Origin: Cytophagaceae bacterium
GTDB taxonomy: Bacteria; Bacteroidota; Bacteroidia; Cytophagales; Cytophagaceae
DNA length: 24,078 nt
Direction: 5' to 3'
Assembly: GCA_035484095.1 (NCBI GenBank)
Contig: DATHPH010000166.1
Span: 1 to 24,078, forward strand
Shown here one piece after another: positions 8,767 to 19,949 of this stretch. A program made the translations under genes and the position numbers. The stretch's first letter is position 1, and every line of letters begins with the position of its first letter. The notes under the pieces are model-generated. The model had not been told where the DNA came from, did not search any database, and worked only from the letters and a program-made list of their open reading frames with translations.

Positions 8767-9843
8767 ATGAAGCTACTTGACAAATACATACTGAAAAAAT
8801 TTCTGGTCTCTTTTTTCTTTGTAGTAATTTTACTGGTCACCGTTATTGTTGTCATAGATATTACAGAACGATTGGATGACTTTATGTCAAGTGGTTCAAG
8901 TTTTAAATCTGTAATAGTGGACTATTACCTAAACTTCGTCCCATACATTGCCAATATGTTGAGTCCGATTACCGTATTTATTGCAACGGTTTTCGTAACC
9001 GCCCGATTGGCTGCTCATACTGAAATCATTGCCATACTAAGCAGTGGAGTAAGTTTTAAACGACTCCTTTTTCCCTATTTTATTGGTTCTCTTATGATAG
9101 GAATCGGAACATTCTTTTTAATTGGCTGGGTGATTCCAAAAGCAAACAAAGCCCGTGTTGATTTTGAAAAACGTTACTTTGAAGGAGAATATTTTTTTGA
9201 AGGAAGAAATGTTCATTTAAAGATAGCTCCTGAGACTTATGTCTACTTAGAAAGTTACAACAGTAGCATTAATATCGGCTACCAGTTTACACTGGAAACA
9301 ATTCGCAACAATCAGATGGTTTATAAACTCAAAACGGATAAAATTGTTTGGGACACCACCTTGAAGGCATGGCATTTGGACAATTATTCCGAGCGCACTA
9401 TTATTAAGGGTGTAGAATCGTATAAAGAAGGGTACAATAAAAATTTAAAAATTAATTTAACCGCCAAAGATTTTGGAAACAACTATATGTTACAGTCTAC
9501 TTATACGCTTCCAAAGCTTATAAAATATGTACACGAGCTCAGAGAAAAAGGAGCAGAAAATATAAATGTCTATCTGGTAGAAATGTATGAACGATTTACC
9601 TACCCCTTTTCGATCATTATTCTTACAATGATCGGTGTAGTAGTCTCTGCCCGAAAATCAAGGGAAGGAACTGGTTTTCAAATAGCTTTTGGCTTCATTC
9701 TGGCTGCAATTTATATCCTGATGGTCATTGTAAGCCGAAATTTTGCAAATGTAGGCGATATTAGTCCATTGATTGCTTCTTGGATTCCTAATGTAGTATT
9801 TTCCCTAATTGGGTTTCAAATGTACCGAAACGTACCCAAATAG
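8767..9843 (+). CDS. LptF/LptG family LPS export ABC permease
   Basis: MKLLDKYILKKF start, three N-terminal TMs, LAAHTEIIAILSSGVS, a periplasmic beta domain and C-terminal WIPN. ATG 8767 avoids an overlap with tgt. Confidence 0.9.
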   Translation: MKLLDKYILKKFLVSFFFVVILLVTVIVVIDITERLDDFMSSGSSFKSVIVDYYLNFVPYIANMLSPITVFIATVFVTARLAAHTEIIAILSSGVSFKRLLFPYFIGSLMIGIGTFFLIGWVIPKANKARVDFEKRYFEGEYFFEGRNVHLKIAPETYVYLESYNSSINIGYQFTLETIRNNQMVYKLKTDKIVWDTTLKAWHLDNYSERTIIKGVESYKEGYNKNLKINLTAKDFGNNYMLQSTYTLPKLIKYVHELREKGAENINVYLVEMYERFTYPFSIIILTMIGVVVSARKSREGTGFQIAFGFILAAIYILMVIVSRNFANVGDISPLIASWIPNVVFSLIGFQMYRNVPK

Positions 9844-9934
9844 TTAAAAAAAGATAAAAAGAGAGGAATGATTATTGTATAAAAAAGATTAATAAACTAC
9901 TTTTGGGTCTACATTTTAGAAATGAAAAATATAG

Positions 9935-9964
9935 TTGCAAATAATATTGATTTCTTATCTTTCA
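9935..9964 (+). promoter_or_regulatory. Candidate arg operon promoter (-33 TTG, -7 TATCTTTC)
   Basis: TTG at 9935-9937 and TATCTTTC at 9957-9964 (one mismatch to TAnnTTTG), with a 19-nt spacer. Confidence 0.55.
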
Positions 9965-9975
9965 ACACCACTCGC

Positions 9976-10011
9976 TTGAAAAATAAATTCTCTTTTTCTC
10001 CCAGGCCTTAG
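9976..10011 (+). CDS. Candidate leader peptide MKNKFSFSPRP (TTG start, ends AGG CCT TAG)
   Basis: Short ORF just after the predicted promoter, with a single AGG Arg codon at the penultimate position, overlapping hairpin AGGCC-TTA-GGCCT. An in-frame ATG at 9922 would give a 29-aa version. Confidence 0.35.
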   Translation: MKNKFSFSPRP

Positions 10012-10125
10012 GCCTCAGCGTTATCGTTTTGCCTATGTGGCAGAATTCTACAGATACGTCTTCCAATAACAATTCATTAATTATTGAACCAAATATTAAT
10101 TTTCTTTTAATCGCCTTAACTGAAA

Positions 10126-10791
10126 ATGTCTGAGATAAGTGTACAAATTGCCGGTAAACAACATTTGCATTTAGCAGAAACTATATGCAAAGAAATGGAA
10201 GAAAGCGCCAAAGTGCGTGGAACCGGAATCGCCAAACGAGACCCTAATTATATCTGTAAAAAGATGGAAGAGGGGAAAGCTATTATTGCCGTCACAAAAG
10301 ATGGGAAATTTGCAGGCTTTTGTTATATCGAAACATGGGGTCATGGAAATTATGTCTCCAATTCGGGACTTATTGTAGTGCCCGAATTCCGTAAATACGG
10401 ATTGGCTACTAAAATAAAACACAAAGCTTTTGAATTGACTCGTTCCAAATACCCGGAAGCCAAACTCTTTGGACTTACAACCAGTGCTGCGGTGATGAAA
10501 ATCAATGCTGAATTGGGGTATCGTGCTGTTACATTCGGCGAACTGACAGATGACGAAGAATTTTGGAAAGGTTGTCAAGGTTGTGTCAACTACCCAATCC
10601 TTGAAAGTAAGGATAAAAAAATGTGTTTCTGTACCGGAATGTTATACGATCCAAAAGAAAAAGAAGAAGAGCGATGGGATTTTATTAAAAAATCCAAGTT
10701 ATACGAAAGCTGGCAACAGTTGAAGACGCATAAATTTTTCAACATGTTTCATAACAAGAAAAAGGATAGTTTGAAAATAATGATGTCTTAA
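10126..10791 (+). CDS. GNAT-family acyltransferase, probable Bacteroidota N-acyl(succinyl/acetyl)-glutamate synthase (functional ArgA)
   Basis: GNAT motif A SGLIVVPEFRKYGLA; first gene of an arg cluster that has no canonical argA or argJ. Confidence 0.75.
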   Translation: MSEISVQIAGKQHLHLAETICKEMEESAKVRGTGIAKRDPNYICKKMEEGKAIIAVTKDGKFAGFCYIETWGHGNYVSNSGLIVVPEFRKYGLATKIKHKAFELTRSKYPEAKLFGLTTSAAVMKINAELGYRAVTFGELTDDEEFWKGCQGCVNYPILESKDKKMCFCTGMLYDPKEKEEERWDFIKKSKLYESWQQLKTHKFFNMFHNKKKDSLKIMMS

Positions 10792-10830
10792 TTTGACTTT
10801 ACAGAACTTAAAAATTAAAGAAATAGTATA

Positions 10831-12027
10831 ATGAAAAAGAAACTTGTTTTAGCATTTAGCGGTGGTCTTGATACTACTTACTGTTTGAAATACCTTACAG
10901 AAGACAGAGGATTTGATGTAGATACAGTTATTGTAGATACAGGAGGATTTAGTAAAGAAGAGCTGGAAGACATTGAAAGAAAGGCTTACGAACTTGGCGT
11001 AACCAAACACACTTGTATAGATCAGATAAGCAATTATTACCAGAACTGTATCAAATACATGATATTTGGGAATGTCTTAAAAAACAATACTTACCCACTT
11101 TCTGTTTCTGCCGAAAGAATGTTTCAGGCATTGGCCATAGCCGAATATGCAAAGTCGGTGAACGCAGATGCTGTAGCACATGGCTCTACAGGTGCCGGGA
11201 ACGATCAGGTACGTTTTGATATGGTATTTCATATTCTGATTCCAGGAATTGAAATTATCACTCCAATACGGGACAATAAGCTTTCACGTGAAGCGGAAAT
11301 AGAATACCTGAAAGCAAAAGGCGTAGAACGTGATTGGACAAAAGCAGCTTACTCCATCAACAAAGGAATCTGGGGAACCTCGGTTGGCGGCAAAGAAACA
11401 CTTACCCCGGACGGTTACCTTCCCGAAACAGCTTGGCCTACACAAGTTACCAAACACCATCCGGAAGAAATTTCACTTGATTTTGAAAACGGAGAATTTG
11501 TAGGTATTAACGGAACCAAAGCCGCAGATCCTGTTGGAGCAATTCTATGGTTAAAAGAAATTGCCGGTCCTTTTGGCATAGGCCGTGACATTCATGTAGG
11601 TGATACTATCATTGGTATCAAAGGACGTGTTGGCTTCGAAGCTCCTGCTCCGCTTATTATTATCAAAGCACATCATTTGTTGGAAAAACACACGCTTACC
11701 AAATGGCAAATGTATTGGAAAGATCAACTCGCCAACTGGTACGGAACACTGCTGCACGAAGGACAATACCTGGAACCTGTTATGCGAAACATAGAAACAT
11801 TTCTTGCTGACAGCCAAAAAAGTGTAACCGGATCGGTAAGAGTACAACTTGCTCCTTATCATTTCTATTTACTTGGCATTCACTCACCGTACGATATGAT
11901 GTCTTCTAAATTCGGCACGTATGGAGAAATGAACAATGCCTGGAGCGGAGACGATGTAAGGGGCTTCTCCAAAATCCTCGCAAATCAGGCAATGTTTCAT
12001 GGATTGGTGAATCAAGAGAATAAATAA
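10831..12027 (+). CDS. argG: Argininosuccinate synthase
   Basis: LAFSGGLDT, AHGSTGAGNDQVRF and KGRVGFEAP motifs. Confidence 0.97.
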   Translation: MKKKLVLAFSGGLDTTYCLKYLTEDRGFDVDTVIVDTGGFSKEELEDIERKAYELGVTKHTCIDQISNYYQNCIKYMIFGNVLKNNTYPLSVSAERMFQALAIAEYAKSVNADAVAHGSTGAGNDQVRFDMVFHILIPGIEIITPIRDNKLSREAEIEYLKAKGVERDWTKAAYSINKGIWGTSVGGKETLTPDGYLPETAWPTQVTKHHPEEISLDFENGEFVGINGTKAADPVGAILWLKEIAGPFGIGRDIHVGDTIIGIKGRVGFEAPAPLIIIKAHHLLEKHTLTKWQMYWKDQLANWYGTLLHEGQYLEPVMRNIETFLADSQKSVTGSVRVQLAPYHFYLLGIHSPYDMMSSKFGTYGEMNNAWSGDDVRGFSKILANQAMFHGLVNQENK

Positions 12028-12046
12028 AATATAAGGTTTATATGAA

Positions 12047-12087
12047 AATACAAATAAATGATGTTAGTCGCATCATTTATTTGTATT
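12047..12087. repeat. Perfect 17-bp inverted repeat with a 7-nt loop
   Basis: AATACAAATAAATGATG-ttagtcg-CATCATTTATTTGTATT. Confidence 0.95.
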
Positions 12088-12212
12088 AAAACAGTTTTCC
12101 CAAACTGAGATTTCAAAACAGAAACAACAAAACGTACCACCCGAATATACCGTAAATAATTTAATCAAAGGGTTTACATCTGGATAGGGATAGAGTATTT
12201 AAGATAACAAGT

Positions 12213-13214
12213 ATGATAAAAGTCGGCATCGTAGGAAGCGCAGGATACACAGGAGGAGAGTTAATTCGGTTGTTAATATTCCATCCGGAAGTGACCATTG
12301 TTTTTGCCCATAGCAACAGCAATTCCGGCAATCCCGTTTCTCAGGTACATACCGATTTGTTTGGGGTAACGGATTTGAAATTTTCCGACACCCTTTCCAA
12401 CAACATTGATGTATTGTTTATGTGTGTGGGCCATGGAGATGCTGTAAAATTCATAGACAGCAATACCGATTATTTTAAAGATTCTATGTTCAAAATAATC
12501 GATTTGAGTCAGGATTTTCGAATTCATGAAAAAAACAAAACCTATTCTTCCGTTCTTAATACTCAAGAATTTGTTTACGGTCTTGCCGAATTACAGAAAG
12601 AAAAAGTAAAAAAAGCAAAATACATTGCAAACCCTGGATGTTTTGCTACGTGTATCCAGCTTGGGTTGTATCCACTTGCCGCAAAAGGATTGATCAAAGA
12701 CGAAATACACATTTCCGGAATTACAGGTTCTACCGGTGCAGGCCAAGGTCTTTCTCCAACATCTCATTTTAGCTGGAGAAATAATAATTTTTCCATTTAC
12801 AAAGCCTTTACACACCAACATCTGAAAGAAATTACCCAAAGCCTGAAACAACTTCAACCTTCGTTGGACAAAGCAATTAACTTCATTCCTTTCCGTGGCG
12901 ATTTTACACGGGGAATTTATGCAACACTATATACTACCTACGACGGGACGATTGAAGAGGCCTATAAACTATACGAAGACTATTATGCAGGACATCCTTT
13001 CACGCACGTTTCCAAAGTAAACCCTGATTTGAAACAAGTAGTCAATACAAACAATACAATCGTTTATCTGGAAAAACATGACAATAAACTATTAATTGTA
13101 AGTATGAACGATAATTTATTAAAAGGTGCCTCGGGACAAGCTGTTCAAAATATGAACCTGATGTTTGGGTTGGAAGAAACTACCGGATTAAAATTGAAAG
13201 CCGCTTCCTTTTAA
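12213..13214 (+). CDS. argC: N-acyl-gamma-glutamyl-phosphate reductase
   Basis: GSAGYTGGEL, IANPGCFAT, GSTGAG and DNLLKGASGQAVQNMN motifs. Confidence 0.97.
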   Translation: MIKVGIVGSAGYTGGELIRLLIFHPEVTIVFAHSNSNSGNPVSQVHTDLFGVTDLKFSDTLSNNIDVLFMCVGHGDAVKFIDSNTDYFKDSMFKIIDLSQDFRIHEKNKTYSSVLNTQEFVYGLAELQKEKVKKAKYIANPGCFATCIQLGLYPLAAKGLIKDEIHISGITGSTGAGQGLSPTSHFSWRNNNFSIYKAFTHQHLKEITQSLKQLQPSLDKAINFIPFRGDFTRGIYATLYTTYDGTIEEAYKLYEDYYAGHPFTHVSKVNPDLKQVVNTNNTIVYLEKHDNKLLIVSMNDNLLKGASGQAVQNMNLMFGLEETTGLKLKAASF

Positions 13215-13228
13215 TTAGAATTACCCAT

Positions 13229-13246
13229 TTATAATTTAAATTATAA
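13229..13246. repeat. Perfect 18-bp AT-only palindrome just upstream of the argD start
   Basis: TTATAATTTAAATTATAA is its own reverse complement. Confidence 0.85.
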
Positions 13247-13250
13247 TACT

Positions 13251-14399
13251 ATGAAACCATTCGATGTATACCCTCTTATCAATGTTGAGCCTGTAAAAGC
13301 TCAAGGTTCTTATCTTTGGGATAAAAACGGAATCAAATACCTGGATCTTTATGGCGGTCATGCGGTGATATCGATTGGACATACACACCCACATTATGTA
13401 AAAAGAATTACAGAACAATTGAATAAAATTGCGTTCTATTCTAATTATGTTATCATTTCATTGCAGGAAGAGCTGGCCAAACTTTTAGGAGAGGTTTCAG
13501 GAAAAACGGATTACCAACTTTTCCTTTGTAATTCAGGTGCTGAAGCCAATGAAAATGCCTTAAAACTTGCCTCTTTCCACAACGGAAAGAAAAAAATAAT
13601 CGCATTCAAAAGAGGCTTTCATGGTAGAACTTCTTTGGCTGTTGCCGCTACTGACAACACTTCCATTGTGGCTCCTGTAAATCAAACAGACAATATTGTG
13701 TTTCTTCCATTCAACGATGAACAAGCATTGGAAGAAGCATTCAAAGAATATGAAAATGAAATTTCTTCTGTCATCGTTGAAGGAATTCAAGGTGTAGGTG
13801 GAATTTACGTTGCCTCAGAATCTTTTCTTAAAAAGATCCGCTCCTTATGTGACCAACATAATGCCGTTTATATTGCCGACTCTGTACAATGTGGATACGG
13901 ACGTAGTGGCAAGTTCTATTCACATGATTTTGCCGGAGTAAATGCTGACATTTATACCATGGCCAAAGGAATGGGCAATGGATTCCCAATTGGCGGAATT
14001 TCGATAGCACCTTCTATCAAACCTAAGCATGGCATGCTTGGTACTACTTTTGGCGGAAATCATCTGGCCTGTGCCGCTGCTCTGGCAGTGCTGGAAGTAA
14101 TGAAAGAAGAAAAAGTAATGGAAAATTCCAATTATCTGGGGAGTTACTTAATGGGTGAATTGAAAAAAATATCGGGTGTAAAAGAAGTTCGCGGACGTGG
14201 ATTGATGATTGGAATAGAATTAGAATTCCCTTGTGCAGATGTGCGTAATAGTTTAATCTTTGACCACAAAATATTTACTGGCTCTTCTTCCGATAAAAAT
14301 ACAATGCGACTTTTGTCAGCACTGAATTTACAGAAACAAGAAGCTGATTTCTTTTTGAATGCCTTTAAAGAAGTAATGAGCAAAATGCTTGTTAAATAA
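13251..14399 (+). CDS. argD: Acyl-ornithine aminotransferase (class III PLP)
   Basis: DLYGGHAV, NSGAEANE, FHGRT, EGIQGVGG, DSVQCGYGRSG, TMAKGMGNG (PLP Lys) and GTTFGGN motifs. Confidence 0.95.
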   Translation: MKPFDVYPLINVEPVKAQGSYLWDKNGIKYLDLYGGHAVISIGHTHPHYVKRITEQLNKIAFYSNYVIISLQEELAKLLGEVSGKTDYQLFLCNSGAEANENALKLASFHNGKKKIIAFKRGFHGRTSLAVAATDNTSIVAPVNQTDNIVFLPFNDEQALEEAFKEYENEISSVIVEGIQGVGGIYVASESFLKKIRSLCDQHNAVYIADSVQCGYGRSGKFYSHDFAGVNADIYTMAKGMGNGFPIGGISIAPSIKPKHGMLGTTFGGNHLACAAALAVLEVMKEEKVMENSNYLGSYLMGELKKISGVKEVRGRGLMIGIELEFPCADVRNSLIFDHKIFTGSSSDKNTMRLLSALNLQKQEADFFLNAFKEVMSKMLVK

Positions 14400-14448
14400 T
14401 CCTTTCCGGAATCAGGATTTGCCGGATTTTGGAATGTCCGGAATTTAT

Positions 14449-14510
14449 TTCTATTGGTACATTAAATTCAATTTGATAATATAAAAATTGAATTTAATGT
14501 ACCAATAGAA
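14449..14510. repeat. Perfect 26-bp inverted repeat with a 10-nt loop, followed by a T-rich tract
   Basis: TTCTATTGGTACATTAAATTCAATTT-gataatataa-AAATTGAATTTAATGTACCAATAGAA, then GCACTTTTTATTTT. Confidence 0.97.
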
Positions 14511-14584
14511 GCACTTTTTATTTTATAGCTTAGAACTATTTTTTGATTCATGACACGTAATCATTTAATTGATATCGAGTCGAG

Positions 14585-14760
14585 AAAAGATGAGGCGATT
14601 TTGTGGTGGAAGACAGATTAATCATTGACTCAAAAGCTTTTATTAATCTCAACCAAACTCACTTGATGCCACCTAAGAATTAAGTGATTGCGTACAATTT
14701 TGAAAAAAGTCTCTACCCAATTTCGAAAACAATGCTCTTCAAGACAAATTAATATCCAAC
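14585..14760 (+). pseudogene. Relic of a GxxExxY protein (PD-(D/E)XK nuclease-like), C-terminal half
   Basis: Reads KR*GDFVVEDRLIIDSKAFINLNQTHLMPPKN*VIAYNFEKSL, then after a -1 shift near 14713 LPNFENNALQDKLISN. This is gap-free colinear with the family consensus as I recall it (ADFVVE..VIVELKA...L...HLAQALNYLEAYNLEVGLLINFG..SL.FKRL). Confidence 0.75.
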
Positions 14761-14942
14761 TTAGGATGCAATTCTGACAAGGGAAAATCTCCATCCAAAA
14801 ATCAAGCGAGAATAAATAATGGTAAAGAATAGATAATATTGTAAATTCAGATCATTGTATTAATTTAGATTTGAGAATGAACAAACAAATATATTCATGC
14901 TCAATCCCAGTAAATTCTGTTCAAGATATTATATAATTTACA

Positions 14943-15893
14943 ATGAGAAATTTCACCACCGTCACCGATGTAGTCGACCTCAACGCACTATTGCAAGATG
15001 CCATAGCCTTAAAGAAAAATCCTTATGCCTTCAAAACTTTAGGTGCCAATAAAACATTGGGATTAATATTCTTAAACCCAAGTCTCCGTACACGTTTAAG
15101 TACGCAAAAAGCCGCACTGAACCTGGGTATGAACGTCATGGTCATGAACATGGACAAAGAAGGCTGGGCGCTCGAAACAGAAGACGGCATTGTGATGAAT
15201 CAAAACACGGTAGAACATATCAAAGAAGCAGCAGCGGTGATGGGCCAATACTGTGATATTATTGGCGTTCGTTCGTTCCCTAAACTATTGGATCAGGAAG
15301 AAGATTATTCAGGTGATTTTTTTAAGAAATTTATTAAATACTCTGGTGTGCCAATCGTAAGTCTTGAAAGCTCTATTCTACATCCACTGCAATCTTTTGC
15401 CGATGTATTGACTATCGAAGAAACGAAGAAAACAGCAAGACCAAAGGTAGTACTTACCTGGGCACCTCATATCAAAGCATTGCCACAAGCCGTACCCAAT
15501 TCTTTTGCAGAATGGATGAATGTGTACGATGTAGATTTTACGATTACACATCCAAAAGGATATGACCTGGCGGAAAAATTTAGTGGTAAAGCAAAAATTG
15601 AATACAATCAAGATAAGGCACTCGAAGGTGCTGATTATATTTATGTAAAAAACTGGTCGTCATACGAAGATTACGGAAAGGTACTTTCCATGGATAGCAA
15701 CTGGATGATGACAAATGATAAATTAAAAAATACGAACAACGGAAAGGTAATGCACTGTCTTCCGGTACGTCGTGGCATCGAATTGGCAGATGAAATTCTG
15801 GACGGGCCAAACTCATTGGTAATTCAGGAAGCCGGCAATCGTCTATGGAGTGCTCAAGCGGTGTTGAAGAAAATATTGGAATCGAATTTTTAA
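14943..15893 (+). CDS. argF': N-succinyl/N-acetyl-ornithine carbamoyltransferase (ArgF'), predicted N-succinylornithine type
   Basis: NPSLRTRLS, HPLQSFAD, TWAPHIKALPQAVPNSF, KNW and HCLPVRR are typical of the AOTCase/SOTCase subfamily; Val at position 90. Confidence 0.92.
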   Translation: MRNFTTVTDVVDLNALLQDAIALKKNPYAFKTLGANKTLGLIFLNPSLRTRLSTQKAALNLGMNVMVMNMDKEGWALETEDGIVMNQNTVEHIKEAAAVMGQYCDIIGVRSFPKLLDQEEDYSGDFFKKFIKYSGVPIVSLESSILHPLQSFADVLTIEETKKTARPKVVLTWAPHIKALPQAVPNSFAEWMNVYDVDFTITHPKGYDLAEKFSGKAKIEYNQDKALEGADYIYVKNWSSYEDYGKVLSMDSNWMMTNDKLKNTNNGKVMHCLPVRRGIELADEILDGPNSLVIQEAGNRLWSAQAVLKKILESNF

Positions 15894-15897
15894 CGAA

Positions 15898-15948
15898 ACA
15901 TGAAGGCACAAAGACGCGAAGCGTTTTTATACTTTCGTATTTTTGAGG
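15898..15948. repeat. Degenerate 8-mer tandem units with an imperfect inverted copy (REP-like hairpin)
   Basis: CATGAAGG-CACAAAGA-CGCGAAGC followed by CTTTCGTATTTTTGAGG, which can fold back on it. Confidence 0.55.
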
Positions 15949-15960
15949 TTGAATTGAAAG

Positions 15961-16755
15961 ATGGAAAAATTATACGTAATTAAAATTGGGGGAAATATTA
16001 TAGAAGATGCAAAGGTCCTTGATGATTTTCTGTGCAACTTTGCCTCTTTAAATTGTTATAAAGTTTTAATTCATGGAGGAGGAAAGAATGCTACACAATT
16101 CGCTAATGATATTGGAATTGAAGCGCAATTTGTGGAAGGAAGAAGAATAACAGATGAGAAAATGCTGAGAATTGTACAGCAAATATATACGAGCCTCAAT
16201 CAAGAAATTATAATAAAATTATTTAATCTCGGCTGTAAAGCGACTGGGATAACCGGAAAAGATGGCAAAATCATCAATGCCGTTAAAAGAGCTCCATTGA
16301 ACGGGATAGATTATGGGTTTGTTGGAGATATAAGGGAAGTAAACGGTGAATTCTTATCGGATATAATTATTAAAGATCAATCAATTCCTGTTTTATCCCC
16401 TATTGTTTATGATATCCAGACAAAAAAAGTACTGAATACCAATGCAGATACTATTGCCTATAATGTTGCAAAATCACTTATATCAAAATTTGAAGTCCAT
16501 CTTATTTATTGTTTTGAATTAAAAGGTGTACTCGAAAATTTCGAAGATAAAAATTCCGTTATTTCAGAAATTACTCCTGCAAAATATTCCGAACTGAAAG
16601 AAAAAGGAATTATATCCAAAGGTATGATTCCTAAGATGGACAATTCTTTTGATGCTATCCATTCAGGTGTTACTTCTGTCAGAATTTGTCACGCAGATGA
16701 TTTAGTTGATATTATAAATAAAGAAGAATTAAAAGGTACAAAATTGCATAAATAG
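15961..16755 (+). CDS. argB: N-acylglutamate kinase
   Basis: VIKIGGN, LIHGGGK, GRRITD, GFVGDI, NTNADTIA and GMIPKM motifs. Confidence 0.96.
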   Translation: MEKLYVIKIGGNIIEDAKVLDDFLCNFASLNCYKVLIHGGGKNATQFANDIGIEAQFVEGRRITDEKMLRIVQQIYTSLNQEIIIKLFNLGCKATGITGKDGKIINAVKRAPLNGIDYGFVGDIREVNGEFLSDIIIKDQSIPVLSPIVYDIQTKKVLNTNADTIAYNVAKSLISKFEVHLIYCFELKGVLENFEDKNSVISEITPAKYSELKEKGIISKGMIPKMDNSFDAIHSGVTSVRICHADDLVDIINKEELKGTKLHK

Positions 16756-16809
16756 CTATAGGAACTAAAATCTACTATCAAAACTCTTTTTTACCTTCAA
16801 TTATTTATT

Positions 16810-16817
16810 TACCTTTG
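16810..16817 (+). promoter_or_regulatory. Internal promoter -7 element (TACCTTTG)
   Basis: Exact TAnnTTTG match, with an ATG 4 nt downstream. Confidence 0.65.
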
Positions 16818-16821
16818 CCCC

Positions 16822-16887
16822 ATGCAAACCAACAAGGCATATATACTTTTTAGCCCCATTACTACTACTCCCTGCGGGGTTCGGTAA
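16822..16887 (+). CDS. Candidate leaderless leader peptide MQTNKAYILFSPITTTPCGVR (21 aa, ends CGG TAA)
   Basis: ATG at the expected transcription start, an ATT-ACT-ACT-ACT codon run and a terminal CGG Arg; upstream of argE-argH. Confidence 0.45.
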   Translation: MQTNKAYILFSPITTTPCGVR

Positions 16888-17046
16888 TCATTTGAGCTAT
16901 TTGCTCATTCTCCCTTTATTTATCCTACTATAATATTAGTCAAATTCCCATACTTTATTTAATTTCAAAGGTCTTTTGATAGTTGAAATTCCTAAAGTTT
17001 AGAATTTGTATCGGAATTAAACTATCAGAATTTAGAACAAACATTT

Positions 17047-18111
17047 ATGGCTGATTTAAAACTATTACAACAAGACGCATTAGAACTGCTGAGAAACTTG
17101 ATTCGTACTGAATCACTAAGCAAACAAGAAGATAAAACGGCAGAAATTTTAAATAATTTTTTCATACAACATGGTATGGAAACCAAACGTTTGAAAAATA
17201 ATGTATGGTCGTTCAATAAATATTACGATCCAGCCAAACCTACGATTTTATTAAACTCTCACCACGATACGGTAAAGCCGAATCCAGGATATACCAACGA
17301 TCCGTTTGATCCATTTATAAAAGATGCCAAACTATACGGCCTAGGTTCTAACGATGCCGGAGGATGTCTGGTATCTTTAATTGCTACGTTCCGCCACTTC
17401 TATGAAAAGCAGAACATGAAATACAACATTTGTATAGCCGCTACTGCAGAAGAAGAAATTTCCGGTTTCGATGGATTGGAATTAGTATATCCTGAATTAG
17501 GAAAAATTGATTTCGCCATAGTAGGAGAACCTACTTTAATGGACATCGCAGTTGCAGAAAAAGGATTAATGGTTATTGATTGCGTTGCTAAAGGAAAAGC
17601 CGGACATGCCGCCCGTGAAGAAGGCGACAACGCTATCTACAAAGCCATAAAAGACATCGAATGGATTAAAAACCACAAATTCGAAAAAGTATCGCCCCAT
17701 CTTGGCCCAATGAAAATGTCGGTCACAATCATCAACGCCGGATATCAACACAACGTGGTTCCTGAAAGCTGCCACTTTACCATCGACGTTCGGATAACGG
17801 AAATGTATAAAAATGAAGAGGTCTTAAAAATAATTGACGACAACATTGAATCAGAAGTAAACCCACGTTCGGTAAGATTGCGTCCTTCCTTTATTGATCC
17901 GGAACATGCACTGGTAAAAGCTGCTATTAAGTTAGGTGCAAAACCTTATGGTTCTCCCACCACCTCCGATCAGGCTTTGGTACCGGTTCCATCTGTAAAA
18001 ATGGGACCTGGAAATTCTGCCCGTTCACATTCGGCGAATGAATTTATATACCTTATCGAAATCGAAGAAGGGATTGAAAAGTATATTAAGATATTGGAGG
18101 AATTAGTTTGA
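17047..18111 (+). CDS. argE: M20 family deacylase (ArgE; N-acyl-citrulline/ornithine deacylase)
   Basis: LLNSHHDTV, GLGSNDAGG, AEEE, GEPT and GPGNSARSH motifs; located in the arg cluster. Confidence 0.9.
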   Translation: MADLKLLQQDALELLRNLIRTESLSKQEDKTAEILNNFFIQHGMETKRLKNNVWSFNKYYDPAKPTILLNSHHDTVKPNPGYTNDPFDPFIKDAKLYGLGSNDAGGCLVSLIATFRHFYEKQNMKYNICIAATAEEEISGFDGLELVYPELGKIDFAIVGEPTLMDIAVAEKGLMVIDCVAKGKAGHAAREEGDNAIYKAIKDIEWIKNHKFEKVSPHLGPMKMSVTIINAGYQHNVVPESCHFTIDVRITEMYKNEEVLKIIDDNIESEVNPRSVRLRPSFIDPEHALVKAAIKLGAKPYGSPTTSDQALVPVPSVKMGPGNSARSHSANEFIYLIEIEEGIEKYIKILEELV

Positions 18112-18160
18112 GTAAGCTATTGATGCAAGATACCAGGAATTGAATTAGATAAACTTTTTT

Positions 18161-18531
18161 ATGCGTGAATTTAAAAATTATACCTATTTGAAAGTGTATC
18201 AAGTTTCCAGAGAATTGTCAATAGATATACATACGCTTCCTAAATTTGAATTATACGAAGAAGGTGGACAACTCAAACGACAAACCAAATCAATACCTTC
18301 GACTACAAAAGGCGGACAATGGAGGAGAAATTATAAAAATGATTTTATACGCTATACTCTATTTGTTCTTAAAGTAGATGATATGCTATTAATTCACTTG
18401 AAATTCTTATCCTTTACCAATTCGACAACAAATTCAGAATTGTTCAACACGTTATCCAATAAATATAAAACATCATGGAAATGTTAAATGGGTTTCTTGA
18501 TGTCGTTATTCGAAAAACATTTAAGCGATAA
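18161..18531 (+). pseudogene. Degraded four-helix-bundle protein (23S rRNA IVS protein family)
   Basis: LKVYQVSRELSIDIH-TLPKFELYEEGGQLKRQTKSIPS...RRNYKNDFIRY resembles the family. The C-terminal MLNGFL segment (18481-18531) is in the -1 frame, and the usual N(I/L)AEG motif has eroded to TTKGG. Confidence 0.75.
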
Positions 18532-18543
18532 ATAGTATGAATA

Positions 18544-18582
18544 CTGGACACAAGATTCCGGCTATTAGAATCTTGTGTCCAG
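18544..18582. repeat. Perfect 15-bp inverted repeat with a 9-nt loop
   Basis: CTGGACACAAGATTC-cggctatta-GAATCTTGTGTCCAG. Confidence 0.95.
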
Positions 18583-18617
18583 CATTTGAAATCTTATAAC
18601 CTAACTACTACATTAAA

Positions 18618-19949
18618 ATGAAACTCTGGCAAAAAGACAAAGACGTAAACAAAGAAATAGAACGCTTTACCGTAGGGCGTGATCGGGAGATGGATATGTA
18701 TTTGGCAGAATTTGATGTATTGGGTTCTTTGGCGCATACGCAGATGTTGGAAAGCATTGGTTTAATTCCGAAAGAAGAATTACCAATTCTGCAGAAAGAA
18801 TTGAAAAATATTTACGCTGAAATTAAAGCCGGTAATTTTTCAATTGAAGACGGAGTAGAAGATATACACTCGCAAGTAGAACTTATCCTAACTAGACGAC
18901 TGGGAGATATAGGAAAAAAAATTCACAGCGGACGTTCACGAAACGATCAGGTTTTATTGGATTTAAAACTTTATACCAGAAGTGCGATCGAACACACTGT
19001 ACTAAATGCAAAAGAATTGTTCGACTTACTTATTCAACTTTCAGAACAATATAAAAATCATTTACTTCCGGGATATACGCATTTGCAGATTGCAATGCCT
19101 TCTTCTTTTGGTTTATGGTTTGGTGCTTACGCAGAAAGCTTGACCGATGACATGGAAATGATGTTGGCCGCTTATAAAATATCCAATAAAAATCCATTAG
19201 GTTCTGCTGCCGGGTATGGCTCCTCGTTCCCGTTGAATCGTCAGATGACCACAGAATTGTTGGGCTTTGATAGAATGAACTATAACGTGGTGTATGCTCA
19301 AATGGGTCGCGGGAAAACGGAAAAAAACGTGGCAGCCGCATTGTCTTCGTTGGCCGGCACCCTGGCCAAAATGTCGATGGACATTTGCTTATACATCAAT
19401 CAGAATTTTGGATTTATTTCATTTCCAGATGAGTTAACCACAGGTTCTTCGATTATGCCACACAAAAAAAATCCCGATGTATTCGAACTGACTCGTGCGA
19501 AATGTAATAAAATTCAATCGTTGACAAATGAAATTACCTTGATGACGACCAATCTTCCTTCCGGATATCACCGTGATCTCCAGATTATCAAAGAAAGTTT
19601 TATTTCCGCGTTCAATGAGATGAACGATTGCCTCAGCATTGCCCTTTATGCCTTAAAAAATATCCGTATCAAGGAAGATATTTTGAAAGACCCTAAATAT
19701 CTGTATTTGTATAGCGTTGAAGTAGTCAATACGATGGTACTGGAAGGTATTCCCTTTCGTGACGCCTATAAAAAAGTAGGTGCGTTAATTGAAGAAAACA
19801 AATTCACTGCTCCCGCCAATATCCATCATACACACGAAGGAAGCATCGGAAACCTTATGAACAAAGAAATACAGCAAGCCATGAACAAAATCATCAATCA
19901 GTTTTATTTTGAAAGGGTTCATTTGGCTTTTGAAAAGTTGGTAAAATAA
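18618..19949 (+). CDS. argH: Argininosuccinate lyase
   Basis: HSGRSRNDQV, PGYTHLQ, GSSIMPHKKNPD and GYHRDLQ motifs. Confidence 0.97.
   Translation: MKLWQKDKDVNKEIERFTVGRDREMDMYLAEFDVLGSLAHTQMLESIGLIPKEELPILQKELKNIYAEIKAGNFSIEDGVEDIHSQVELILTRRLGDIGKKIHSGRSRNDQVLLDLKLYTRSAIEHTVLNAKELFDLLIQLSEQYKNHLLPGYTHLQIAMPSSFGLWFGAYAESLTDDMEMMLAAYKISNKNPLGSAAGYGSSFPLNRQMTTELLGFDRMNYNVVYAQMGRGKTEKNVAAALSSLAGTLAKMSMDICLYINQNFGFISFPDELTTGSSIMPHKKNPDVFELTRAKCNKIQSLTNEITLMTTNLPSGYHRDLQIIKESFISAFNEMNDCLSIALYALKNIRIKEDILKDPKYLYLYSVEVVNTMVLEGIPFRDAYKKVGALIEENKFTAPANIHHTHEGSIGNLMNKEIQQAMNKIINQFYFERVHLAFEKLVK

Follow-up and report, generated by a model that had tools for sequence, protein, structure and literature searches.

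The window analysed here is a stretch of 24,078 nucleotides from a Cytophagaceae bacterium, and positions 10126–19949 of its forward strand hold an arginine biosynthesis operon. The first gene of the operon encodes a GNAT acetyltransferase (10126–10791, forward strand), recognised by a PF00583 score above the cut-off. It is followed on the same strand, up to 19949, by argG, argC, argD, argF', argB, argE and argH, which are named after NCBIfam models. Upstream, a gene for an lptF/G-type permease ends at 9843, leaving 282 nt of intergenic DNA before the GNAT gene. The source assembly is 2.5 Mb in size, 78% complete and 36% G+C. Its closest named records are metagenome bins of the Cytophagaceae or Cytophagales, and Cytophaga aurantiaca belongs to the same family. 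The intergenic DNA contains a predicted promoter, a short leader open reading frame (ORF) and three hairpins, A, B and D. The conserved parts of this module, namely hairpin A, hairpin B at the Arg codon and stop, and hairpin D, span about 125 nt.

The leader ORF (9922–10011, forward strand) has an ATG start, comprises 29 codons followed by TAG, and ends Pro(CCC)-Arg(AGG)-Pro(CCT)-stop. An earlier reading of this DNA, made without database searches and called here the sequence-only reading, had begun the ORF at the TTG at 9976. The resulting peptide, MKNKFSFSPRP, with its AGG at 10003–10005 and its TAG ending at 10011, is present as placed. The TTG, however, is in frame with the ATG at 9922, and it is the longer ORF, of 29 amino acids, which has been kept. 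Within the family, 24 genomes from 16 genera were compared in the region preceding the GNAT homologue, and 22 of them contain an ATG ORF in the same register. These ORFs have 21–31 codons, mostly 29–31, and end in Pro-Arg-Pro-stop, once in Pro-Arg-Leu-stop; one short member probably starts at an upstream GTG. Nor is the AGG the only Arg codon, as had been supposed, since codon 18 of the full ORF is CGC. The distance from the leader stop to the GNAT gene is 114 nt in the window and 104–177 nt in the family. There are two same-family exceptions (L008 in genome G010 and L010 in genome G017): one has no recognisable leader, and the other has a TTG-started ORF which ends Leu-Arg(AGG)-Leu-TAG and has neither a GGCC arm nor hairpin D. 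No NCBIfam leader-peptide protein model matches the leader.

A promoter of Bacteroidota type is predicted at 9875–9905 on the forward strand. The -7 consensus of Bacteroidota promoters is TAnnTTTG, which is matched here by TACTTTTG at 9898–9905, with a -33 TTG at 9875–9877. Nearly all of the 22 family leaders have a TTG...TAnnTTTG motif 17–22 nt 5' of their ATG. The promoter proposed earlier, TTG-N19-TATCTTTC, falls inside the leader ORF and is not conserved as a promoter. A GGAAC(A/G)-N4-6-TTTG block, here GGAATGATTATTG (9866–9877), extends the -33 element and recurs in several genera of the family, as a possible UP-like element or binding site for a factor.

The end of the ORF is constrained at two levels. 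In the 22 family leaders, no position of AGG, TAG or the GCC after it varies, while the Pro codons at -3 and -1 are invariant at their first two positions and variable at the third (entropy 1.46 and 1.62 bits, respectively). The family constraint is CCN-AGG-CCN-UAG-GCC, a coding pattern with an RNA-level pattern on top. Because the ORF is conserved and its Pro codons vary at the third position only, it appears to be read as codons, and on this pattern of substitution it is evidently translated. The only universally kept sense codon is that of the penultimate Arg, here AGG, which makes up 11% of the Arg codons in the genome and is thus a minor codon, though not the rarest. In 47 leaders this AGG is never CGG, even though hairpin B would survive or even grow longer with CGG, and a gene for tRNA-Arg(CCG) is there. 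Two relatives carry a dedicated tRNA-Arg(CCU) gene. The absence of CGG thus points to selection on the codon itself. A +1 frameshift at CCC-AGG was considered and rejected, as there is no conserved slippery site and the preceding codon varies (CCC, CCG, CCT, CCA).

The invariant near-palindrome GGCC-NTA-GGCC might lead one to see in AGGCC-N-TAGGCC a DNA operator for some repressor, with the ORF being incidental. We regard this as most improbable, since the variation coincides precisely with third codon positions in a conserved ATG ORF, since other families substitute unrelated sequences which still form an RNA hairpin over the stop, and since the site lies some 100 nt downstream of the promoter.

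Hairpin A (TTTCAA/TTGAAA; 9960–9981, forward strand) is predicted inside the ORF. Most family leaders have a hairpin of differing sequence at the same place, and in other families it takes the form CUAUUCC-N4-GGAAUAG, encoding S-I-P-A-G-I-V. Hairpin B (10003–10015, forward strand) pairs GGCC at 10004–10007 with GGCC at 10011–10014, adding an A10003–U10015 pair, and four of its pairs are kept in all 22 family leaders. The Arg codon lies in its 5' arm and the UA of the stop codon in its loop. Within the family the hairpin is invariant save for one C>U change which retains a G-U pair. In other families different Arg and last codons occupy the 5' arm and are matched by the 3' arm after the stop, examples being GACGC/GCGUC, UAGGGU/ACCCUA and ACGCU/AGCGU. 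An energy-based test found the stop-codon hairpin to be more stable than 95% of shuffles in 13 of 35 leaders, where about two would be expected. A crude count of stem length in the other families gave no enrichment (4.6 versus 4.2), and as a whole the leader is no more stable than its shuffles (z = -0.66).

Hairpin D (10027–10045, forward strand) has a 7-bp stem, formed by 10027–10033 with 10039–10045, a UAUGU loop and the core CCUAYGYGG. Its stem covaries: 94.8% of cells are paired, five of the seven pairs show compensatory changes and none of 500 shuffles reaches the observed score. Seven of the nine core nucleotides are near-invariant in the family, and the loop also occurs in at least six further families. 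The hairpin keeps a fixed distance of 24–28 nt from the upstream Arg codon, also in leaders with a shifted stop. Thus in two leaders from other families of the order (L028 and L029) the ORF continues past the AGG hairpin and stops 3–4 nt before hairpin D, with the AGG-to-D distance still at 24–25 nt; the reference point for the spacing is therefore the Arg codon, not the stop.

These properties fit a reading in which hairpin D is the real sensor, or a handle for an arginine-responsive RNA-binding protein or other factor that recognises the CCUAYGYGG loop, and in which the ORF does no more than govern ribosome traffic or RNA folding. D is situated immediately past a ribosome halted at the ORF end and is explained by no ribosome position, which also speaks for such a role. 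However, D is present in a single copy per genome and so marks no regulon, it is a 19-nt hairpin with neither bulge nor pocket, no candidate binding protein is encoded nearby and the conserved Arg codon is left unexplained. Furthermore, the leader has no match in Rfam, the T-box model included, either at the gathering threshold or at E <= 10. We consider this reading quite unlikely. As a regulon mark D was rejected directly: it is the sole intergenic hairpin of its kind in the genome, and of the only two other D-like hairpins one lies within a 253-aa ORF and the second is putatively coding, as it appears from its flanks.

The sequence-only reading had envisaged three competing helices: 1:2 (AGGCC/GGCCT, 10003–10015, hairpin B), 2:3 (TAGGC, 10009–10013, with GCCTA, 10031–10035) and 3:4 (TTTTGCC/GGCAGAA, 10027–10045, hairpin D). 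All of these strands are present, and helices 1:2 and 3:4 are real. The 2:3 antiterminator, on the other hand, was rejected: four of its pairs are invariant, the fifth is broken in nine of the 22 leaders, and no covariation is seen. The alignment upstream of the GNAT gene that had been suggested as a check therefore bears out a conserved AGG-CCN-TAG and a covarying 3:4 stem, but not covariation in 1:2, which is invariant, or in 2:3. The D loop is kept in families whose stop region no longer holds UAGG, and so it is not conserved for pairing with the stop region. With the usual footprint, a ribosome whose A site is occupied by AGG or UAG covers hairpin B and most of the spacer and leaves D uncovered, so that D should fold whatever the ribosome does. 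Such a ribosome would cover the 5' strand of the 2:3 pairing. The earlier reading is thus partly supported, being right in essence and wrong as to the start, the promoter and the logic of the switch.

The leader extends well beyond the source genome. A covariance model of the region comprising the Arg codon, the stop and hairpin D gives one match in the source genome (E 4.7e-14) and, in an order-wide sample, matches six of eight genomes of the family, once each. A scan of 185,579 species genomes with a strict DNA pattern returned 84 loci, about 47 of them in Bacteroidota: Cytophaga and Cytophagaceae, some 22 Pontibacter species, Imperialibacter, Roseivirgaceae, and Ferruginibacter/Chitinophagaceae. 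In nearly all of the Bacteroidota loci a GNAT homologue follows 96–186 nt downstream, and both inside and outside the family the form is an ORF ending CCN/NNN-AGG-CCN-TAG-GCC before a GNAT-argG operon. The remaining loci, mostly in high-G+C genomes and without the GNAT gene, are chance matches. The Pontibacter leaders are longer (42–44 codons) and end Arg-x-Arg-Pro-stop.

A survey of the class, based on 60 GNAT upstream regions out of 301 sampled genomes, shows a wider variety of endings. An ATG ORF of 14–75 codons with one to three Arg codons among its last three codons precedes 35 of the 60 operons, across 21 families, and the ends include RR-stop, RRR-stop, PRP-stop, PRA-stop and FRV-stop. 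Position -2 uses at least five of the six Arg codons across these leaders, and in a protein alignment of ten leaders from six or more families the penultimate Arg is the sole invariant residue.

Arginine synthesis is a textbook case of control by the ArgR repressor, and most of the sampled Bacteroidia are without ArgR. The ArgR C-terminal domain (PF02863) was not found in the source genome or in 40 relatives of its order (41 of 41), 34 of these relatives being of high quality; the same search was positive in the control, Bacteroides thetaiotaomicron. In the class sample the domain occurs in 13 of 301 genomes. Eight sampled operons have argR directly upstream of the GNAT gene (G067, G102, G179, G209, G236, G262, G288 and G339), in the place held elsewhere by the leader. 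Seven of the eight lack an Arg-terminated leader, and the Arg-ended ORF in the eighth is probably a chance ORF. The distributions of leader and ArgR are complementary, which is a pattern and not a statistical test, since the genomes are related and non-independent. The earlier suggestion of a leader with a penultimate Arg(AGG)-Pro-stop end before the arg operon holds in ArgR-less Bacteroidota. Full-text searches of the published literature turned up neither a leader peptide described for a bacterial arg operon nor a reported attenuator for arginine, in agreement with the view that the leader had not been described. On comparative grounds, it is a real, conserved cis-regulatory element, and apparently an undescribed one.

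The untranslated spacer after hairpin D (10046–10125, forward strand) has, by composition, a G-poor stretch with C in excess over G, followed by an AT-rich block up to the GNAT start. Across 47 distinct leaders, C and G make up 24% and 8%, respectively, of the 50 nt that come after D. The C-over-G tract noted in the sequence-only reading is indeed there, with 10 C and 3 G in these 50 nt, but the excess is modest, a C-G of 7 or more being reached in 9% of the 50-nt windows of the genome. The 27 nt before the AGG are also richer in C than in G (30% versus 17%). As that reading had observed, no U-tract follows hairpin D: neither a terminator-like hairpin nor a U-tract lies between the stop and the GNAT gene in the window, and a terminator-like hairpin is likewise lacking in 19 of the 22 family leaders. 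In Pontibacter leaders (L031, L044, L049, L065-L109) two further hairpins follow D, the last being GC-rich, succeeded by U/A-rich sequence and situated about 45 nt before the GNAT gene; it may be an intrinsic terminator, a feature otherwise absent from these leaders. Rho is encoded in all five near-complete relatives, while its RNA-binding domain was not found in the source assembly, which is 78% complete.

We propose that the leader at 9922–10011 senses arginine through the dwell of a ribosome at the Arg codon and that its output is Rho-dependent, a reading in which we have middling confidence, placing its chances at about even. According to this proposal, the arg operon transcript would carry at 9922–10011 a translated mini-gene as its leader, in which the dedicated tRNA-Arg-CCU reads the AGG. 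Under a shortage of charged tRNA-Arg the ribosome would dwell with AGG in the A site, holding hairpin B open and occupying the pyrimidine-rich stretch between hairpins A and D. Pyrimidine-rich RNA flanks B and D on either side, and the paused ribosome would mask its upstream part. With ample arginine the ribosome would instead finish at the adjacent stop and depart, allowing B and D to fold, and its release would leave 114 nt of untranslated, G-poor RNA bare. Rho could then load and halt transcription before the GNAT gene is translated. The ORF with its codon pattern, hairpins B and D, the missing terminator and the distribution complementary to that of ArgR are observations; it is the Rho step, the response to arginine and the direction of the regulation that we infer here. 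The geometry would resemble that of tna, with the difference that the signal would be a hungry cognate codon and not the free amino acid, and the logic of the module differs from that of the classical terminator/antiterminator switch.

A hungry-codon sensor is the most economical explanation because Arg is the sole conserved codon, because it is present in one to three copies depending on the family, and because it sits at the end of the ORF and in the 5' arm of the stop hairpin. A Rho-type output is plausible given the lack of an intrinsic terminator, the G-poor, C-over-G tract after D and the presence of Rho in relatives. An output by translational sequestration of the GNAT start was modelled and rejected: when the region covered by the stalled ribosome was forced to be unpaired, the predicted accessibility of the start region in 22 leaders was 0.41, against 0.41 unforced.

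Several points stand against the proposal. The leader has a single terminal Arg codon, where classical attenuators have runs. Pro-stop ends are slow to terminate, and a ribosome may linger there even when arginine is plentiful. In the model, the C-rich tract that follows hairpin D would lie out of reach of a ribosome paused at AGG, which sits ill with its keeping Rho away. The strictly conserved D loop is without a role in the codon-sensing model. Also to be counted against it are that AGG is not the rarest Arg codon, that the C excess in the window itself is modest and that the Rho RNA-binding domain did not turn up in the source assembly.

The same dwell at the Arg codon could have mRNA decay or processing as its output, the departure of the ribosome allowing B and D to form and be cut by an RNase. 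This variant has a precedent in orf34 of speF with RNase G (PMC6386406), and it accommodates both the lack of a terminator and the fact that the ribosome governs only the folding of B, with D being constitutive. No cleavage motif has been identified, however, and the G-poor tract would be left unexplained, so that we see only a slim chance for it.

A further possibility is that the Arg-Pro nascent peptide itself blocks release at the UAG, with free L-arginine bound in the ribosome, and that the parked ribosome lowers downstream expression. Arg is fixed at exactly -2, whichever Arg codon is used in other families, and the last residue is Pro in 46 of the 47 leaders with the AGGCC...TAGGCC motif. 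TnaC, the leader peptide of the tryptophanase operon, likewise ends Arg-Pro-stop, and the 29–31 codons usual in the family would fill the exit tunnel. Yet no residue besides Arg is invariant, and the best-kept peptide motif, the S-I-P-A-G-I-V of other families, corresponds to the two arms of hairpin A, so that its conservation is explained at the RNA level. The tandem Arg ends of other families (RR-stop, RRR-stop) are a hallmark of codon sensing, and the stop codon varies between families. Moreover, stalling under high arginine would need to bring about repression, and the sequence shows no element for a stop-parked ribosome to inactivate. Release blocked by the nascent peptide is therefore unlikely. 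Taken more broadly, as a ribosome-arrest device in which the Arg-Pro-stop end and the invariant hairpin D together sense free L-arginine or a D-bound factor, the idea carries a low but appreciable probability. Were it true, much of the Bacteroidota would possess a bacterial counterpart of the fungal arginine attenuator peptide, and for the first time an arrest peptide would be known that shuts down a biosynthetic operon.

Comparison with known systems brings out what is particular to the proposed codon sensor. With the classical attenuators (trpL, hisL, leuL, thrL, pheL) the arg leader shares a short translated 5' ORF with the cognate codon near its end, hairpins which overlap the end of the ORF, and the fact that it stands in for a missing repressor. 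It differs in having one terminal regulatory codon and not a run, and in having neither a terminator composed of a hairpin and U-tract nor a supported 2:3 antiterminator. Thus, of the features which define a classical attenuator, a short conserved 5' ORF is found, as a sequence pattern, whilst exclusive pairings and an intrinsic terminator are not. As to cognate codons, there is one invariant AGG at -2 together with the CGC at codon 18, related families having one to three terminal Arg codons. When the genome was searched for leaders of the classical type, with His, Trp, Phe or Arg runs, no His-run ORF came up and the rest was noise. In a comparative study, T-boxes are the only RNA-level control listed for arginine genes, and cys leaders without a terminator are proposed to be Rho-dependent (PMC1262725).

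The Rho-dependent tnaC leader of the E. coli tryptophanase operon resembles the arg leader in its ending and in its long untranslated, terminator-less spacer, and in both a ribosome held at the end of the ORF is expected to decide the action of Rho. TnaC, however, senses free tryptophan through its conserved Trp12 and Asp16 and induces a catabolic operon, whereas the arg leader precedes a biosynthetic operon, its likely signal is tRNA charging and it is invariant only at Arg. Sensor residues of the TnaC type (Trp12, Asp16 and Pro24 in TnaC) were not found, only the penultimate Arg and, in this clade, the terminal Pro being invariant. TnaC itself is the subject of PMC8429421.

Arginine codons have been implicated in two other bacterial leaders. 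In orf34 of speF (SpeFL; Salmonella, E. coli) Arg codons modulate expression by arginine and translation of the ORF interferes with Rho (PMC6386406). The arg leader shares with it Arg codons in a leader ORF and an arginine-dependent expression, which in the arg leader is that of our proposal. In orf34, however, the Arg codons are internal, the main ligand is ornithine and the output includes RNase G, and there is no sequence similarity. In Staphylococcus aureus, rbfL senses arginine limitation by the slow decoding of rare AGA/AGG codons in a tiny upstream ORF (PMC13009471). It differs in lying across the downstream ribosome-binding site, which it occludes, and in repressing expression during starvation, whereas the arg leader ends 114 nt before the GNAT gene and a modelled stalled ribosome leaves the predicted accessibility of the start region unchanged. 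The fungal arginine attenuator peptide (arg-2/CPA1) is also encoded by an upstream ORF, of 24–25 codons, before an arginine-synthesis gene, with stalling at the stop codon in fungi. It blocks eukaryotic scanning and senses free arginine through a conserved peptide core, and bears no sequence relation to the arg leader.

If the codon-sensing reading is true, the leader would explain the feedback of arginine on the arg operon in abundant ArgR-less relatives from soil, water and the gut, and arginine would join the short list of amino acids under leader-peptide control.

Two further features of the window may be mentioned. A second small ORF (16822–16887) encodes 21 amino acids, ends Gly-Val-Arg(CGG)-TAA and lies after an exact TACCTTTG, 160 nt before argE. 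Two congeners have the same ORF together with a CCC-UNCG-GGG hairpin, and their peptides end GVC-stop and GV-stop; with its terminal Arg not kept there, this ORF was rejected as a sensor of the same kind and as support for the leader. The AT-rich block before the GNAT gene (10068–10125) is about 85–90% conserved within the genus, more so than the C-rich tract preceding it. It contains ATTCA-N8-TGAA and a GTTAAC palindrome, which bear a loose likeness to the junction of two ARG boxes, with no ArgR being encoded, and the block may be a start-site enhancer or an operator.
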